DNA of 53,406 bases from Thermoanaerobaculales bacterium (lineage in GTDB: Bacteria > Acidobacteriota > Thermoanaerobaculia > Thermoanaerobaculales > Sulfomarinibacteraceae), in the NCBI GenBank assembly GCA_048061535.1, contig JBGMRN010000001.1, positions 12,703 through 66,108 on the forward strand, given 5' to 3'. Below the pieces are notes generated by a model. The model searched no databases. It was not told the DNA's origin and saw only the letters and a program-made list of their open reading frames with translations. Position numbers and translations under genes: made by a program. Below are positions 1 to 48,531 of this stretch, one piece after another. The first letter of the stretch is position 1. Each line of letters begins with the position of its first letter.

Positions 1-366
1 ATCTTCTCGACCGACGAACATCTCGACGCGGATGACCTGCTGGCTCGGATGAAAACAAAACGACGCAAGGTGTCGCGGGCGACGGTTTATCGGACCCTCG
101 ACCTGCTGGTGCAGTGTGGATTGGTGCGCAAGAGCCGTCTCGGGCGAGAGCACTACTTCTACGAGAAGATGGAACCAGGCGGCGGGCACCACCATATGGT
201 GTGCACCGCGACCGGGAAAATCATCGAGTTTTGGGACGCCGACCTCGATGAGCGACTCCGGCGGCTGTGCCAGGACCACAAGTTTCGAGCCACCTTCATT
301 TCGATCCAGATCCAGGGTCTGAGCGAAGAGGGGCAGAAGGTCGAACAGGAAACGTCCTTTTTCTAG
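1..366 (+). CDS. fur: Fur-family metal-uptake transcriptional regulator, 5'-truncated by the window edge
   Basis: Frame 1 is open from nt 1. Translation has a winged-helix segment (SRATVYRTLDLL) and a C-terminal metal-binding/dimerisation region (HHHMVC...IEF). TAG stop at 364-366. Confidence 0.8.
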   Translation: MFSTDEHLDADDLLARMKTKRRKVSRATVYRTLDLLVQCGLVRKSRLGREHYFYEKMEPGGGHHHMVCTATGKIIEFWDADLDERLRRLCQDHKFRATFISIQIQGLSEEGQKVEQETSFF

Positions 367-4269: not shown

Positions 4270-4434
4270 CCTGTTCCCCTCCGGAAACTCCGAAGGGGAC
4301 GGCGCGGTCCTCGATGCTTCACGAGCGATTTTTCTGCAAGATCAAGGAAAACAAGGGTTTCCGCGGAGACGTACTCCCGTACGTCGCACAAGGAAATTCG
4401 CAGTAGCAGAAAGATGGTGGGATATGCGGGCTAG
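4267..4434 (+). mobile_element. MITE-like element, copy B1 (subfamily B)
   Basis: About 85 bp are near-identical to the reverse complement of 14026-14107. Termini are TAGCCTG at the 5' end and GCGGGCTAG at the 3' end. The 3' module AGAAAGATGGTGGGATATGCGGGCTA is shared with the A copies. Confidence 0.75.
4276..4298 (+). terminator. Hairpin directly after the ferritin stop (CCCCTCCGG-aaact-CCGAAGGGG), inside element B1
   Basis: 8 of 9 bp stem starting 7 nt after the TAG, with no U-tract. The homologous hairpin in copy B2 shows a compensatory G-C to A-T change. Confidence 0.35.
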
Positions 4435-13979: not shown

Positions 13980-13987
13980 CCCGTTCT

Positions 13988-14009
13988 CGTCCGGAAACGG
14001 CGCATTTTT
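13988..14009 (+). terminator. Intrinsic-terminator-like hairpin plus T-run after udk, inside B2
   Basis: CG(T)CCG-GAAA-CGGCG followed by CATTTTT, starting 9 nt after the udk stop. Confidence 0.45.
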
Positions 14010-14132
14010 GCAATCTCTGCGTCAAACTGCGAATTTCCTTGTGCGATGTACAGGAGTACGTCTCCGCGGAAATTCTTGTTTTCCTTGATCTTGCAGAAAA
14101 ATCGCTCGCTGCCGCATCGAAAACCGCGTTGT

Positions 14133-14157
14133 CCCTTCCAGAGTTTCTGGACGGAGG
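14133..14157 (-). terminator. Hairpin directly after the Hfq-like gene stop, inside B2
   Basis: The minus strand reads CCTCCGTCCAG-aaact-CTGGAAGGG. It is homologous to the B1 hairpin at 4276-4298 and has no U-tract. Confidence 0.3.
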
Positions 14158-14161
14158 CGGG

Positions 14162-14638: not shown

Positions 14639-14838
14639 TACCCGGCGCCGAACCCACAAAATCAAACCAACCCACCAGATTTCGTCGCCAGAGGCGCATG
14701 GGGTTGTACGTGTCTGCGCTCTCGATGTTTTGGGAGCGAAGTCGTACTCGCGGTGCTTCGAGCGAGCAAATCGAGAAAGCGCAGACCTGCACCGTGCATT
14801 GTGCCCTGCATTAGAAAGATGGTGATTGGCTGGGGCTG
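14639..14838 (+). mobile_element. MITE-like element, copy A1 (subfamily A, degenerate ends)
   Basis: The core 14671-14825 aligns with 19441-19600 and 32462-32620. The 5' end carries a roughly 22-bp insertion and the 3' terminus has decayed to GGGGCTG. Confidence 0.7.
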
Positions 14839-19427: not shown

Positions 19428-19611
19428 AAGGCGCCATATTCCTCACCAGATTTCGTCGCGAAGGGTACAAGACGCTGTGCGTGTCTGCGCTCTCGCAAGG
19501 TTTGGGAGCGAAGTCGTACTTGCGGTACATCGAGCGAGCAAACCGAGAAAGCGCAGATACGCGCTGTGTATTGTGCCCCGTGGTAGAAAAATGGTGAGAT
19601 ATGCGGGCTAT
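19428..19611 (+). mobile_element. MITE-like element, copy A2 (subfamily A)
   Basis: Aligns over about 170 bp with A3 and A1. The 3' terminus TGGTGAGATATGCGGGCTA ends on the stop codon (19608-19610) of the convergent lipid kinase gene. Confidence 0.8.
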
Positions 19612-29892: not shown

Positions 29893-30969
29893 ATGGAACA
29901 TCGCCTCGACGCCTGGCTGATCCTCGCCGTCACCGGCATTCTCGGAGCCTCTCTGGTAACGCTCCACGCGGTCTCCAGGATCGCAGGAACGAATCTGCTG
30001 CTCCGTCAACTTCTCTGGGGGGCGGCCGGGATCGTCGTTCTCCTCGTCTTGTCGAGGGTGCGACTCGACCTCTACCGCCGCGCGGCGCCCCTCCTTTACG
30101 GAATGGGTCTCGCCTCCCTGGTCGCCGTCCTCGCGTTTGGGGTGGTGCGTGGTGGCAACAGGGCGTGGTTCGCCCTCGGTCCCTTGACCATCCAACCCAG
30201 CGAGTTCGCCCGCCTCGGCACCATTCTCATGGTGGCGGCGTGGCTGACGCGGCGCGAGGGAGCGCAGCTCAAGATTGTCGAGGTCGCGACGCTCACCTGC
30301 CTGGTTGGCCTGCCGACGCTGCTGATCATCGTCGAACCGGATCTCGGCGTCGGGCTCACCTACCTGCCGATTCTCGGTGCGGCTCTGTGGCTCGGCGGCC
30401 TGCCCCGGGCGAGCTGGGTGATTCTCTTCGCCCTCAGTCTTGTCGCGGCGGGAGCGGTCTGGCAGATGGCTCTCAAGCCCTATCAGCAGGAGCGAATACT
30501 CACTCTCCTCGATCCGGAACGCGATCCCTACGGAGCCGGCTACCAGGTTCGGCAGTCCAAGATTGCGGTAGGTTCGGGCGCAGTTGACGGCCAGGGCATC
30601 GGCCGCGGCACCCAGTCACAGCTTCGCTTCCTCCCGGCTCAGCACACGGACTTCGCCTTCGCCGTCTGGGCCGAGGCCACGGGATTTGTGGGGAGCACGG
30701 TCTTGCTGGCGGCCTACGGTCTGTTGTTGTGGAGGATCGGGGTGGTGGCTCTCGCCACCGAAAGTCGACACGGGCTGATTCTGACCGTGCTCATCGGCTC
30801 GTGGCTCGCCTTCCAGGTGGTCACCAATCTTGGCATGGTCCTCGGCTGGTTGCCCACCACCGGAGTCACCCTTCCTCTCTTCTCCTACGGTGGATCCTCG
30901 CTGATTTCCACCTGCGCGGGGCTAGGCATCGTGCAGTCGGTGTGGGCCTTCCGATTCGTGAACCGGTGA
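29893..30969 (+). CDS. rodA: SEDS-family peptidoglycan polymerase RodA
   Basis: FtsW/RodA/SpoVE membrane-protein similarity (QPSEFARL, LPLFSYGGSS). Confidence 0.92.
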   Translation: MEHRLDAWLILAVTGILGASLVTLHAVSRIAGTNLLLRQLLWGAAGIVVLLVLSRVRLDLYRRAAPLLYGMGLASLVAVLAFGVVRGGNRAWFALGPLTIQPSEFARLGTILMVAAWLTRREGAQLKIVEVATLTCLVGLPTLLIIVEPDLGVGLTYLPILGAALWLGGLPRASWVILFALSLVAAGAVWQMALKPYQQERILTLLDPERDPYGAGYQVRQSKIAVGSGAVDGQGIGRGTQSQLRFLPAQHTDFAFAVWAEATGFVGSTVLLAAYGLLLWRIGVVALATESRHGLILTVLIGSWLAFQVVTNLGMVLGWLPTTGVTLPLFSYGGSSLISTCAGLGIVQSVWAFRFVNR

Positions 30970-32453
30970 TGAACGCTGTTCTCTTTCTCTCCGTCAACCC
31001 CTTCGAGACCAGGGTGGCATTGCGCGAGGATTCGCGGCTGGTTTCCTACCGAGCAGATCGGCATCGCACTTCTTCGGTGGTCGGCAATATCTACAAAGGT
31101 CGCGTCAACCGCGTTCTTCCCGGAATGCAGGCGGCATTTGTCGATATCGGCCTCAACCGCGGCGCCTTCCTCTACGTGCGCGAGGCGGGCGGCATTCTCG
31201 ACGACTTTACCGACATCTTCCCCGCCTCGGACGGCGAAGATGGTGCTCCCGACCTGTCGACATCTGACATCTCCGATCTTCTCCGACAGGGGCAGGAGAT
31301 CCTCGTGCAGGTGGTAAAGGACCCGATTGGAACCAAAGGAGCGCGCCTGACCACCCACGTCAGCCTGCCCGGCCGCTTTCTGGTGTACCTGCCCAACGTT
31401 CACCAGCTCGGCGTTTCCCGCCGCATCACCGATGAAGAGGAACGGGCCAGGTTGAGGGAGGTTGTGGAGAGCTTCGACGAGTCGGGGGGCTGGATCGTTC
31501 GGACTGCTGGCGAGAACCAGGGGAGATCAGAGCTCGAGGCCGACCGGGACTATCTGCTCCGCCTCGCCGAAATCGTGCAGGCAGCCGGAGACCGGACGGG
31601 AGCGCCGAATCTCGTCCATCGTGAATTGAGCCCGATCCTGCGTGCGGTGAGAGACATGTTCACCCACAACATCCACGAGGTTTGGGTCGATGACGAAGAA
31701 AGCTTCCAGGAGGTGCTCGACTTCCTCGAACAAGCCGACCCCAGCCTGGTCCCGCGGGTCAAGCTCTTCCGCCAGGCGACCGATCTCATGAGCTCCTTTG
31801 GAATCGACCGCGAGCTCGAGAAGGCGCTGCGTCCAAAGGTGTGGCTCAAATCCGGAGGATCCCTGGTAATCAACCAGACGGAGGCCCTGGTGACGATCGA
31901 TGTCAACACGGGTAAGTTCGTCGGTTCCCACTCGCTGGAGGAAACGGTTTTCGACGTCAACCTTGAGGCGGTTGGGGAGATTGTGCGCCAGCTGCGCCTC
32001 CGCGATCTGGGTGGTATCGTGGTGATCGATTTTATCGACATGGAAGACCCCGAGCATCGTCAAACGGTCTACGAAACCCTCGCCGGGGACCTCTCCGCAG
32101 ACCCCGCCCGGACGCAGCTCCTGCCAATGAGCGACATCGGCCTGGTCCAACTCACCCGCAAACGTACCCGCCCCAGCCTCGAGCGCACCCTGAGTCGGGA
32201 GTGTCCTTACTGTTACGGGTCCGGCCGCATCAAAGCGCTGCCGACGGTATGCCTGGAAATTCGCCGTGAACTGCTGGCGGTCGCCGCCGGCGAGCTCGAC
32301 GAACAAGTTTCACTGGTTGTCCACCCGGAGGTTTCGCATTACCTCCAGGGACCGTTCCGTGAGCTGCTGCGGGAGCTCGAGGAGATCCACGGCCTGCAGA
32401 TCATCCTGCGAGAAAACCCGCTTTTTCACCTCGAACAGTTTGATGTCGGTTAG
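30969..32453 (+). CDS. rng: Ribonuclease G/E family endoribonuclease
   Basis: S1 domain (GNIYKGRVNRVLPGMQAAFVDIG) and catalytic region (LVTIDVNTGKF, VIDFIDM). The ATG at 30969 overlaps the rodA TGA. The TAG stop at 32451-32453 lies in the TTAG flank of element A3. Confidence 0.9.
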   Translation: MNAVLFLSVNPFETRVALREDSRLVSYRADRHRTSSVVGNIYKGRVNRVLPGMQAAFVDIGLNRGAFLYVREAGGILDDFTDIFPASDGEDGAPDLSTSDISDLLRQGQEILVQVVKDPIGTKGARLTTHVSLPGRFLVYLPNVHQLGVSRRITDEEERARLREVVESFDESGGWIVRTAGENQGRSELEADRDYLLRLAEIVQAAGDRTGAPNLVHRELSPILRAVRDMFTHNIHEVWVDDEESFQEVLDFLEQADPSLVPRVKLFRQATDLMSSFGIDRELEKALRPKVWLKSGGSLVINQTEALVTIDVNTGKFVGSHSLEETVFDVNLEAVGEIVRQLRLRDLGGIVVIDFIDMEDPEHRQTVYETLAGDLSADPARTQLLPMSDIGLVQLTRKRTRPSLERTLSRECPYCYGSGRIKALPTVCLEIRRELLAVAAGELDEQVSLVVHPEVSHYLQGPFRELLRELEEIHGLQIILRENPLFHLEQFDVG

Positions 32454-32632
32454 CCCGCTTTTCTCACCAGATTTCGTCGCGAGGGGTACAAGACGCAATG
32501 CGTGTCTGCGCTCTCGCAAGGTTTGGGAGCGAAGTCGTACTGGCGGTGAATCGAGCGAGCAAACCGAGAAAGCGCGGACCCGCGCTGTGTATTGTGCCCC
32601 ACAGTAGAAAGATCGTGAGATATGCGGGTTAG
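32450..32632 (+). mobile_element. MITE-like element, copy A3 (subfamily A archetype), flanked by TTAG direct repeats
   Basis: Left end TTAG|CCCGCTTTTCTCACCAGATTT and right end AAAGATCGTGAGATATGCGGG|TTAG. The terminal inverted repeats (TIRs) match at 8 of 8 and 7 of 8 positions across the two blocks. A long imperfect internal hairpin includes GTCTGCGCTCTCG/CGAGAAAGCGCGGAC. Confidence 0.85.
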
Positions 32633-45032: not shown

Positions 45033-45477
45033 TTTTCTCACTCCTTGTCGTAGGTGATAACTCCCGAACCATCTCGACCACCGTACCTCCTGCGGGCGTT
45101 CGGCTGAAATCGACGCGGTTCATGAACTGTCGCATGTAGAAGATACCGCGACCGTTTGGGCGCAGCAAATTTTCGGGGTTTGTGGGGTCGGGAATGCTTT
45201 CGGGATCGAAACCTTTGCCGTCGTCTTCGATTCTGATGGTGACAGTGGAATCTTCGATGGTGAAAGCGATGCGAACCCAGCGAGTGGGATCCTGTTGATT
45301 GCCGTGCCGGACGGCGTTGGCCAGGGCCTCTCTGAGGGCGGTAACCAGCCAGTACTCGTCTTCGCCGTCACGCCCGGCCTGGTGGCAGAGATCGAGAAGC
45401 GCGCGTTCTGCAACCTCAATATTTTCGAAGCGGCTTGCCAAGATGAGATCGGTCTTCAGGCTGGTGCTCGCCGGCAT
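45013..45477 (-). CDS. Anti-sigma regulatory Ser/Thr kinase (RsbW/SpoIIAB-like, HATPase_c)
   Basis: N-box ALANAVRHGN and G-box DDGKGFD...GRGI. Overlaps the STAS gene. Confidence 0.8.
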   Translation of the reverse strand: MPASTSLKTDLILASRFENIEVAERALLDLCHQAGRDGEDEYWLVTALREALANAVRHGNQQDPTRWVRIAFTIEDSTVTIRIEDDGKGFDPESIPDPTNPENLLRPNGRGIFYMRQFMNRVDFSRTPAGGTVVEMVRELSPTTRSEKNEEQDS

Positions 45478-45601
45478 TTCTCGTCAGCTCCCCGCTGCGG
45501 CCGGCGATGTTCCATGCCCCTCGGAATCTCGTAAATCTTGCGGCCCAACGTTCATACGAGCGGAGAGTATAGCAGCAGGGTCATGAGTCGATCGCCGCCG
45601 C

Positions 45602-46684: not shown

Positions 46685-46890
46685 CGGCCCACTTTTCTCA
46701 CCGCCCCCCGATTTCAGCGTTTTCGGGAACCGGTAGGGCGAAAGATCGGGGAGCGGAGAGAAAACCGGCCGGTCTTTTTGGTCTGACCCCTGCCGCCTGG
46801 TTATTCCCTGGTCAGGGCGGGATTCCCCGATCCCTTTCACGAACTCTGTCTTTCCAATAGATTCTTGGGGGCGAGGAGAAAAGCGGGAAA
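46685..46890 (+). mobile_element. MITE-like element, copy D1 (divergent core), filling the lexA to tRNA-Pro spacer
   Basis: The 5' end GGCCCACTTTTCTCACC..GATTTCAGCG resembles the A3 5' end GCCCGCTTTTCTCACCAGATTTCGTCG. The 3' end AATAGATTCTTGGGGGCGAGGAGAAAAGCGGG resembles GGTAGAAAAATGGTGAGATATGCGGG. It also has a long internal hairpin (GATCGGGGA/TCCCCGATC). Confidence 0.55.
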
Positions 46891-46892
46891 AA

Positions 46893-46969
46893 TGGTCGGG
46901 GCGAGTGGATTTGAACCACCGGCCTCACGGTCCCGAACCGTGCGCTCTGCCAAGCTGAGCTACGCCCCG
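46893..46969 (-). tRNA. tRNA-Pro (anticodon CGG), encoded CCA
   Basis: Acceptor stem CGGGGCG/CGCCCCG, anticodon stem CACGG/CCGTG with loop TTCGGGA, T-arm GGTGGTTCAAATCCACT. Confidence 0.9.
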
Positions 46970-46984
46970 ACGGGGGCGACATTC

Positions 46985-47002
46985 TAGCCCGCTTTCCTCG
47001 CC
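46985..47002 (+). repeat. Solo terminal-repeat-like sequence TAGCCCGCTTTCCTCGCC
   Basis: Resembles the 5' terminus of the MITE family. It is also the inverted partner of 46870-46887, matching 15 of 15 positions with one 3-nt indel. Confidence 0.5.
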
Positions 47003-47016
47003 TTGGCAACAACTAC

Positions 47017-48357
47017 TCACAACGATGCGAACTGGCTGATCAGGATCACGGTGATGAAGAGTGGACAAACCCACCGCACAAAGAAACGCCACGGTCCAGC
47101 GAACATCGCGAATCCAGGAGACGAAGAGAGGATCTCGGCTACCGCGGCGTCGAGTCCCCAAACATAGGTGCCGAAGAGGCACAACATGAGGGCGCCGAAG
47201 GGGAGAGAAAAGCTCACCCACGCGAAGTCCATCAGTGAGAAAAAGCCTTCGAACCCGAGGATGTTGGCGGTCGCCCACGGCTCGGTCCCGACCCACGCCA
47301 GCGCCGACGGCACTCCGATGACCAGGGTGACGACGCCTCCGATCCAGACCGTTCGCGTTCGCGACCAACCGCGTTCGTCGATACAGTAAGCGGAGATCAC
47401 CTCGAGCAGCGAAACCGTGGAGGTCAACGCCGCTACGCCGAGGAGGAAGAAGAAAACCGCCCCGACCAAGGTGCCTCCGGCCATGACGCCAAAGACGGCG
47501 GGAAGTACCTTGAAAATGAGGTCCGGCCCGCCATCCGGTTGTTGTCCGAGCGCGAAGAGCGCCGGGAAGATCATCAGTCCGGCAAGAACGGCGATCATGG
47601 TGTCGAAGAGGACAACCCAAGAACCACAGCGGAGGATGTCCTGCTTCTTCGAGAGATAGGATCCATAGGTGAGCATGGCCCCCATGCCGAGCGAAAGCGA
47701 AAAGAAGGCTTGCGCCATGGCGTCGAGTACGACCCGCAGGTTGAGCTTGCTGAAATCGGGCCTCAGGAACCAACGCAGACCCTCGCCCGCGCCCGGCAAC
47801 ATCAGACCTCGGATGATGATGCCGATCATCAGAACCAGCAGCAACGGCATGAGAATTTTTGCCCATCGCTCGATACCGCGTTGGACTCCGCCCAAGACCA
47901 CCAGAACCGTGAGAACGAGAAAAATACCAAAGAAAAGCAGGGCCGATCCGGGGCCATAGGAAGTGATGAGCGCCGTACCCGTCACGACGCGCTGACTGTA
48001 GTCTATGAAGAGCGCCAGCACCTGGCCGGCAATCACCGCGTAGAAAGAAAGAATCCCGAGACCGGTGAGGATCGCCAGGTAGCCCAGGTACTTCCATTGC
48101 CCGTGCGGGCGGATCGCCCTAATTGCCCCCACCGGATTCTTCTGGGTGGCTCGCCCGAGCGAAATTTCGAGCAACATGACCGGCAGGCCGAGACCGAGCA
48201 CGCACAGTAGATAGACGAGGACGAAAGCGCCGCCCCCGTTCTCGCCTGCGGAATACGGAAATCGCCAGATGTTGCCAAGGCCGATGGCCGACCCCGCAGC
48301 CGCGAGGATGAAGCCGGCCTGCGAACTCCACTGCCCGCGATCCGAATTGGCCCGCAT
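47017..48357 (-). CDS. Sodium-dependent transporter, SNF (neurotransmitter:sodium symporter) family
   Basis: GFILAAAGSAIGLGNIWRFPY signature and about 11-12 TM helices. The ATG at 48357 lies inside the terminal repeat of element C1. Confidence 0.9.
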   Translation of the reverse strand: MRANSDRGQWSSQAGFILAAAGSAIGLGNIWRFPYSAGENGGGAFVLVYLLCVLGLGLPVMLLEISLGRATQKNPVGAIRAIRPHGQWKYLGYLAILTGLGILSFYAVIAGQVLALFIDYSQRVVTGTALITSYGPGSALLFFGIFLVLTVLVVLGGVQRGIERWAKILMPLLLVLMIGIIIRGLMLPGAGEGLRWFLRPDFSKLNLRVVLDAMAQAFFSLSLGMGAMLTYGSYLSKKQDILRCGSWVVLFDTMIAVLAGLMIFPALFALGQQPDGGPDLIFKVLPAVFGVMAGGTLVGAVFFFLLGVAALTSTVSLLEVISAYCIDERGWSRTRTVWIGGVVTLVIGVPSALAWVGTEPWATANILGFEGFFSLMDFAWVSFSLPFGALMLCLFGTYVWGLDAAVAEILSSSPGFAMFAGPWRFFVRWVCPLFITVILISQFASL

Positions 48358-48531
48358 ATCTCACCAGCTTCCTGCTGCGTTCGGCGACCCGCCGCACCCA
48401 GCGAATTTTCTCGCCCCGGAGCCCTCACCCAGCCGACAACAGCGCCCGGAGACCAAAGTCTCGCCTCGAGGCGAGGCCGTCGGACACGTGCTGGTGACGA
48501 TGAGACCTCAGCACCGAAAGCGCGCGGGAAC
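48349..48531 (-). mobile_element. MITE-like element, copy C1 (third core type), in the SNF transporter 5' region
   Basis: The minus-strand 3' end GCAGCAGGAAGCTGGTGAGATATGCGGGC matches the B1 tail at 25 of 29 positions, and GAAAATTCGC is shared. The 5' end is TTCCCGCGCGCTTTC..TCACCAGC. A closing inverted repeat TCACCAGC/GCTGGTGA is present. Overall length is about 183 bp. Confidence 0.6.

Follow-up and report, generated by a model that had tools for sequence, protein, structure and literature searches.

A 53,406-nt stretch of a metagenome-assembled genome (MAG) of Thermoanaerobaculales (Acidobacteriota; 62.6% G+C), hereafter the window, contains repeats of 160–200 bp that have no coding capacity. 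These repeats are very probably non-autonomous miniature inverted-repeat transposable elements (MITEs) that use the ends of insertion sequences (ISs) of the IS1380 family, because full-length IS1380-family elements carry the same ends and CTAG flanks. Indeed, they have the features of MITEs: they are short and lack a transposase gene, have inverted ends, are flanked by a duplication of fixed length, occur as dispersed copies and differ in occupancy between related genomes. The copy A3, located at 32450–32632 between the RNase G gene rng and mqnC, has the structure TTAG-CCCGCTTTTCTCACCAGATTT...AAAGATCGTGAGATATGCGGG-TTAG. Its terminal inverted repeats are imperfect (16 of 21 positions match between the ends), its flanks are identical over 4 bp, and the left TTAG contains the rng stop codon, in agreement with a preliminary description of this DNA.

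We propose that a DDE transposase of the IS1380 family, encoded elsewhere in the genome or since lost, would bind the 16–17-bp inverted repeat (consensus CCCGCATATCTCACCA) and insert the element at YTAR, mainly CTAG, with duplication of those 4 bp. Copies would accumulate right behind genes, in many cases where two genes converge. Observed directly were the ends and their flanking duplications, the partner elements with their transposase family, and the occupancy differences between relatives; mobilisation in trans within this lineage is what we infer from them.

Full-length partners of the IS1380 family

Public genomes, one per species, were scanned with the terminus TAGCCCGCATATCYCACCA, demanding a perfect end and TAG. 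More than 110 loci from at least six phyla were retrieved, for an estimated 8 or so chance matches. Host taxa included Acidobacteriota (Thermoanaerobaculia, Holophagae, Bryobacterales, and Terriglobia), Gammaproteobacteria, among them cultured Thioalkalivibrio, Alphaproteobacteria, and a deltaproteobacterium. Among the matches listed, to which the counts of complete elements given below also refer, further hosts were Gemmatimonadota, Myxococcales, Dehalococcoidales (Chloroflexota), and Balneolaceae.

Among the otherwise unpaired termini, we observed inverted pairs spaced 1.64–1.78 kb apart. The full-length elements bounded in this way carried the same 16–17-bp ends as the MITEs, of the CCCGCATATCTCACCA type, with CTAG flanks. 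A single Arenicellales chromosome carried two identical elements of 1784 bp at separate positions (L041 and L099); a 1641-bp element was found in an alphaproteobacterium, with CTAG on one side and TTAG on the other (L051); and a 1693-bp element of Bryobacterales had a frameshifted transposase gene (L094). The open reading frames (ORFs) of L041/L099 and L051, of 475–483 aa, matched NF033539 above its curated cut-off (E = 5.6e-117 and 4.9e-123, respectively) as well as PF13701 (DDE_Tnp_1_4; E = 6e-152 and 1e-154), and the frameshifted gene of L094 matched the IS1380-type models with E-values of 2.9e-65 and 1.4e-42. A further end pair, 1769 bp apart, enclosed an unclassified ORF of 474 aa (L068).

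The L041 transposase was 50–55% identical to its closest plasmid-borne relatives, and relatives of the partner transposase were very abundant in metagenomes. An annotated IS1380-family element of Pseudomonas putida pKF715A reads CTAG-CCCGCATTTCTCACAG...CTGTGAGAAATGCGGG-CTAG, and IS1380 of Acetobacter has a related end, CGCGGAAATCTCACA, with TCGA on both sides. Taken together, these matches identify IS1380-family elements as the probable autonomous partners of the MITEs. The preliminary description had held that the repeats were moved in trans by a transposase encoded outside the window and had suggested a search for an IS with matching ends; such ISs were found in L041/L099, L051, L094 and pKF715A and lend support to that view. 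As it had also stated, the window itself encodes no transposase (best tblastn E = 0.15).

Two other candidates for a full-length IS were rejected: the ORF between two termini of L067 (2604–4257) is a cytochrome c gene, and three termini of L008, spaced 2267 bp apart, belong to a tandemly triplicated AAA-ATPase gene. In L008 (1230–7230), the 2267-bp units are 95% identical, each with a 500-aa AAA-ATPase gene whose TAG stop is fused to an element terminus; the triplication may be genuine or may have arisen during long-read assembly.

Target site and its duplication

Complete short elements, defined by the terminus at both ends with up to 3 mismatches, numbered 79, including the window's copy, and measured 68–370 bp. 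Identical 4-bp flanks were observed in 47 of them, as CTAG/CTAG (41 elements), TTAG/TTAG (3), CTAA/CTAA (2) or TTAA/TTAA (1), the share of CTAG and TTAG being inflated by the query, which demanded TAG at one end. The flanks of the other 32 were unequal, mostly by a one-base difference. The target is YTAR, duplicated as a true 4 bp. The earlier proposal of a 4-bp YTAG duplication was correct in length and in the presence of TA, and has to be widened, since CTAA/CTAA and TTAA/TTAA pairs exist. A duplication of TA alone, as in IS630, had been considered since CTAG is palindromic; it is ruled out by the non-palindromic direct pairs.

In three loci (L019 6898–7093, L069 1–199, and L067 4200–4470), elements were arranged head to tail with one common CTAG; in L067, a 55-bp mini element was followed by a B-type element (described below) and then by a third terminus. 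A single CTAG common to adjacent elements fits re-use of the duplicated target, and suggests that this target is hit again.

Occupancy of the same sites in related genomes

The window was compared with contigs of relatives that encode 81–85% identical RNase G and PurD and that have kept the gene order. Between hfq and udk, where the window has a 182-bp gap with B2, L119 contained an element of the 176-bp type, and L120 and L121 a 10-bp end relic, CCCGCAGATC. The gap between cysK and the lipid kinase gene was 225 bp in the window, with A2, versus 38 bp in relatives, and that between ricT and hfq was 329 bp, with A1, versus 147 bp. Between rng and mqnC, the 184-bp gap of the window contains A3; relatives had TTAA-CCCGGTTTTCTCACCGGG-TTAA or CTAA-CCCGGTGACTGTGCGGG-TTAA at this site (L111/L112 5490–5515; L114 4172–4196; L115–L117 5485–5509), and L118 had 13 bp with no clear relic. 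The relics between rng and mqnC consist of ends only (17–18 bp), retain YTAR flanks and would be products of internal deletion or excision; a regular-expression search found no other YTAR-flanked end-only relic in the fetched loci. The same stop-codon sites show gain, loss and replacement of elements. The 38-bp gap (L119 7932–7969; also L120 and L121) contains the stretch CGGCCCATTTCTCGAC, which resembles CGGCCCACTTTTCTCACC, the left end of the candidate element D1 (Table 1), and may be another relic.

Position at stop codons

CTAG was observed 12 times in the window, versus 183 times expected from base composition (about 15-fold depletion), and TTAG, CTAA, and TTAA were likewise 9- to 15-fold low. 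A total of 36 YTAR sites was present, of which 9 lie on stop codons of the gene list and 6 flank termini. With CTAG so depleted and a quarter of the YTAR sites being stops, copies pile up directly after genes. Insertion on a stop is harmless, because the duplicated YTAR contains TAG or TAA and the stop codon is therefore rebuilt. Counted over all 79 complete elements, TAG or TAA flanks ended a reading frame open for 80 codons or more in 49 of 135 cases, versus 52 of 270 out-of-frame controls (Fisher p = 2.5e-4).

The five coincidences of termini with TAG stops listed in the preliminary description (ftn, udk, hfq-like, lipid kinase, and rng) were all correct, and the tabulation of flanks that it had advised gave, besides the 47 identical pairs, 45 of the 79 complete elements touching the stop of a frame of at least 80 codons. 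Its explanation, a scarcity of TA-containing targets outside stop codons, pointed in the right direction, as the counts of CTAG and YTAR show; the stop-codon pattern may stem from a preference at insertion or from retention. A CTAG at 363–366, formed by the overlapping stops of the convergent ORFs 49–366 (+) and 363–1622 (−), is unoccupied and is exactly the kind of site that these elements use.

Copies in the window

The features of the window are listed in Table 1. Matches to the terminus pattern with 0 or 1 mismatch were exactly the five termini that had been claimed, and YTAGCCCG was observed 6 times versus 2.0 expected, a count that was reached in none of 100 shuffles. Matches with 3 mismatches were at chance level (34 observed, 29 expected).

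Table 1. Elements, duplicated target sites and neighbouring genes in the window
Feature	Position	Strand	Left neighbour	Right neighbour	Ends, flanks and state
RNase G gene rng	30729–32453				stop TAG within left TTAG of A3
Left target-site duplication of A3	32450–32453				TTAG, includes TAG stop of rng
A3, intact MITE, 176-bp subfamily (175 bp)	32454–32628	+	rng	mqnC	CCCGCTTTTCTCACCA (left), TCGTGAGATATGCGGG (right)
Right target-site duplication of A3	32629–32632				TTAG
A2, 176-bp subfamily	19432–19607	+	cysK	lipid kinase	canonical right end GGTGAGATATGCGGG-CTAT; left end decayed, no duplication
A1, old copy, 176-bp subfamily	14654–14835	+	hfq-like	ricT	both ends decayed; core identity 85–87%
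C1, decayed member, 176-bp subfamily	48351–48528	−	Na+ transporter	atpC	orientation opposite to A copies
Half copy, decayed, 176-bp subfamily	45471–45569	−			CCGGCATTTCTCGTCAGCTCCCCGCTGCGGCCGGCGATG...; profile E = 1.1e-4; absent from the preliminary description
B1, B-type core	4270–4430	+	ftn	rimK-like	left end CCTGTTCCCCTCCGGAAAC after ftn TAG stop; canonical right end GGTGGGATATGCGGG-CTAG
B2, B-type MITE	13980–14161	−	udk	hfq-like	CCCGTTCTCGTCCGGAAAC and CCCGCCTCCGTCCAGAAAC; CTAG/CTAG
D1, candidate MITE	46688–46887	+	lexA	tRNA	inverted ends CCCACTTTTCTCACCGCCCCC and CCCGCTTTTCTCCTCGCCCCC (17/21); unique core
Possible solo end, weak	46984–47002	+	tRNA	Na+ transporter	CTAG + CCCGCTTTCCTCGCC; 3-mismatch match to terminus

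Seventeen 176-bp copies, all foreign, were used for an nhmmer profile, which in the window matched A2 (E = 1.4e-23), A3 (E = 3.3e-23), A1 (E = 1e-11), the left 90 nt or so of C1 (E = 1.7e-10), the half copy at 45.5 kb, and the right end of B1 (E = 0.006). Since it finds A1–A3 and the left part of C1, the A and C copies are assigned to one widespread subfamily of 176 bp, present in opposite orientations. Repeat finding gave mutual identities of 85–91% over 97–172 nt between A1, A2, and A3, the highest between A2 and A3 (91% over 172 nt). In A2, the right flank CTAT holds the reverse-strand TAG stop of the lipid kinase gene. C1 was 80–89% identical to 12 foreign loci (blastn, 13 alignments); its homology is limited to the first 90 nt or so (48351–48442) and its flank TTGG is no clean duplication. 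The half copy has as neighbours an anti-sigma-type (HATPase_c_2) kinase gene and cutA.

The B-type elements have a terminus of their own, the CCCGTTCTCGTCCGGAAAC type, at both ends of B2 and at the left end of B1, and only the right end of B1 is canonical. Because its B-type core is joined to a canonical A-type right end, B1 is a B/A chimera. Repeat finding showed that B1 and B2 have 83 nt in common (95% identity), in inverted orientation. The inverted ends of B2 agree at 15 of 19 positions, and its CTAG flanks contain the udk and hfq-like stop codons. A deltaproteobacterial MAG (L067) contained a copy with 80% identity to B2, and the B-type ends there are CTAG-TTCCCGTCCGAAAAC...GTTTCCGGATGGGAA-CTAG.

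D1 had no relatives among the fetched loci and no YTAR flanks, and only its ends pair when it is folded (z-score −1.7). Its right end and the possible solo end, both of the CCCGCTTT(T/C)CTC type, lie on either side of a tRNA gene (46896–46969, − strand).

In all, seven homology-supported copies were present in 53 kb. In A3 and B2 the two termini and a duplication are still in place; A1, A2, C1, and the 45.5-kb fragment are decaying fossils, as is D1 if it is an element. The list of copies in the preliminary description stands for A1–A3, B1, B2, and C1, with D1 and the solo end as weak extras; the half copy had been missed. That all copies have the same ends did not hold for either end of B2 or the left end of B1, nor for the decayed ends of A1 (both) and A2 (left). 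The four subfamilies with common termini and unrelated cores have to be redrawn likewise, with A and C as one family, B with its own ends and D1 only a candidate.

Hairpin structure of the 176-bp subfamily

Members of the 176-bp subfamily measured 174–177 bp across Acidobacteriota, Gemmatimonadota, and Gammaproteobacteria and kept the subterminal motifs TTTCGTCGCGAGG ... CCGCAGCAGAAAG; A3 was 50–64% identical to the foreign members. A3 folds as one long hairpin, with z-scores of −4.75 on the + strand and −4.2 on the − strand. In the hairpin alignment, 93.5% of the cells were paired, versus 31–51% when the partners were slid, and beyond the terminal repeat 14 of 16 stem pairs had changed on both sides, in a compensatory manner. 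No significant whole-length fold was found for B2, C1, or D1, and a scan of A3 gave neither promoter nor T-tract terminator signals above the chance level. The window yielded only tRNAs in Rfam at the gathering score, and four loci with complete elements gave nothing on the elements at E-values up to 1. The invariant A core TTTGGGAGCGAAGTCGTACT had two matches in metagenomes, both by chance and in unrelated sequence, and a blastn search of plasmids with A3 gave no match.

Alternative explanations

Several observations weigh against MITEs with IS1380-family ends. No transposase was found within the 53-kb window, and current mobility in this lineage is putative. The flank statistics, drawn from the matches listed and from a query that demanded TAG and a perfect end, are biased towards CTAG/TTAG. 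Recent activity is made less likely by the 9–15% divergence between the A copies and by the damage to the ends of most of them. Past CCCG, the B-type ends no longer follow the canonical terminus, and an IS with ends of this type was not found. Moreover, the preliminary description had advised comparing empty and filled sites, and occupancy indeed differs at four sites of the window; a clean empty YTAR site was seen in none of the relatives, end relics occupy their rng/mqnC and hfq/udk sites, and the junction of the 38-bp gap between cysK and the lipid kinase gene lacks YTAR, with a terminus-like stretch inside the gap.

MITEs could also be moved by another TA-centred transposase family, either the IS5 group, which makes a 4-bp YTAR duplication and thus has the very target observed here, or IS630/Tc1-mariner, for which a TA duplication next to a repeat extended by G/C would yield the same sequence at palindromic CTAG flanks. 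We consider this highly improbable: all scanned full-length products between these ends are of the IS1380 family, the annotated IS1380-family element shares these ends and is flanked by CTAG, and the CTAA/CTAA, TTAG/TTAG, and TTAA/TTAA pairs are impossible from a TA-only duplication. No IS5-family match was found among the transposases identified between the ends, in a survey that included no dedicated search for IS5 ends. Practically no weight is left for non-mobile palindromic intergenic repeats, of the repetitive extragenic palindrome or bacterial interspersed mosaic element (REP/BIME) type, or for chance similarity. The elements are indeed intergenic, palindromic and GC-rich, and terminus matches with 3 mismatches occur at about the frequency expected by chance; against this stand the direct 4-bp duplications, the same ends on transposase-encoding partners, the differing occupancy of orthologous sites, and a 19-nt terminus found in at least six phyla, far above the estimated chance matches.

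A different question is whether the 176-bp hairpin is itself under selection, as a structure at RNA 3′ ends (stabiliser, terminator or processing site), following transcription together with the upstream gene, or as a DNA cruciform. Its constant length in three taxa, the excess of paired cells over slid partners, the pairs changed on both sides, the A3 fold and the copies directly behind stop codons all speak for such a function. We nevertheless judge it unlikely, as both orientations occur among copies, the decay of the window copies is at odds with selection at the level of the host, and for B2, C1, and D1 folding over the whole length is not significant; the absence of an Rfam match and of a terminator or promoter signal in A3 points the same way. 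In addition, selection for transposition itself can keep a hairpin, and related sequences inflate covariation counts. Also improbable is the broader idea that the 176-bp subfamily, rather than being a parasite in decay, is an element constrained by its structure across phyla, either a co-opted hairpin or a piggyBac-like foldback substrate. Co-variation of its arms extends over roughly 50% divergence in sequence, with the length kept at 174–177 bp. If co-opted, the hairpin would be a 3′-end RNA or a DNA structure placed exactly at stop codons; if this IS1380 clade transposes in the manner of piggyBac, at TA-centred targets of 4 bp and with CCC/GGG ends, transposition would favour the foldback as substrate, and the 17–18-bp, YTAR-flanked relics of ends would have arisen by excision or deletion.

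Comparison with known systems

MITEs that use IS1380-family ends leave current concepts unchanged, and MITEs riding on an IS family are well known as a kind. Judged against Rfam and the literature, in which we found no paper with the terminus sequence and nothing relevant on IS1380-derived MITEs or on a CTAG target of IS1380, there seems to be no earlier description of the partner family, of the target or of the spread across phyla; the family still appears uncharacterised, as first described. For annotation, a partner (IS1380), a target (YTAR) and ends (CCCGCATATCTCACCA) can now be named for repeats of uncultured Acidobacteriota, Gemmatimonadota, Proteobacteria, Myxococcota, and Chloroflexota, which helps the annotation of gene ends and the assembly of MAGs, since these repeats break contigs. 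They also offer a clean example of a rare, stop-codon-containing target that directs mobile DNA precisely to gene 3′ ends, leaving the genes unharmed, and the co-varying hairpin in cultured Thioalkalivibrio is a test case for whether a foldback is kept for transposition or for an RNA function of the host.

The IS1380 family, with its founder IS1380 of Acetobacter, IS1247 and ISEcp1, is listed in ISfinder with ends starting with CC and 4–5-bp duplications. In ISEcp1 the duplication measures 5 bp. The 16–17-bp terminal repeat of the MITEs is that of the full-length elements of MAGs and nearly that of pKF715A (CCCGCATTTCTCACAG), and these full-length elements are flanked by direct CTAG repeats. 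However, the window elements share nothing with the ISs beyond the terminal repeat and are small and non-coding. Unlike the 4 bp observed here, 5-bp duplications were reported for IS1247 (PMC3281130).

Like the classical bacterial MITEs (Correia/NEMIS of Neisseria, ERIC/IRU of enterobacteria, RUP, Nezha, and MITEPye1), the elements are small, with inverted ends and a target duplication, are present in many intergenic copies, can form a whole-length hairpin and are presumed to be mobilised in trans by a matching IS; mobilisation of MITEPye1 by IS1182 was argued in the same way (PMC11578231). They differ in their partner, IS1380, and in their target, which is YTAR (4 bp), where classical MITEs use TA or longer AT-rich sites. 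Moreover, whereas classical MITEs are found within one genus or family, the terminus and the 176-bp subfamily extend across at least six phyla.

The eukaryotic piggyBac elements duplicate TTAA and have CCC...GGG termini. A 4-bp, TA-centred duplication is thus common to both, and the YTAR target described here includes TTAA/TTAA. The hosts differ, eukaryotic versus bacterial, as does the preferred target, TTAA versus CTAG, no sign of precise excision or of hairpin intermediates was seen here, and the resemblance is one of target and ends, not of membership. IS1380 transposases have been treated as distant prokaryotic relatives of piggyBac, serving as its outgroup (PMC10140906). The TA-centred 4-bp target together with CCC/GGG ends is suggestive of a parallel to piggyBac, and a bacterial clade with these properties would be a useful comparison for that family.

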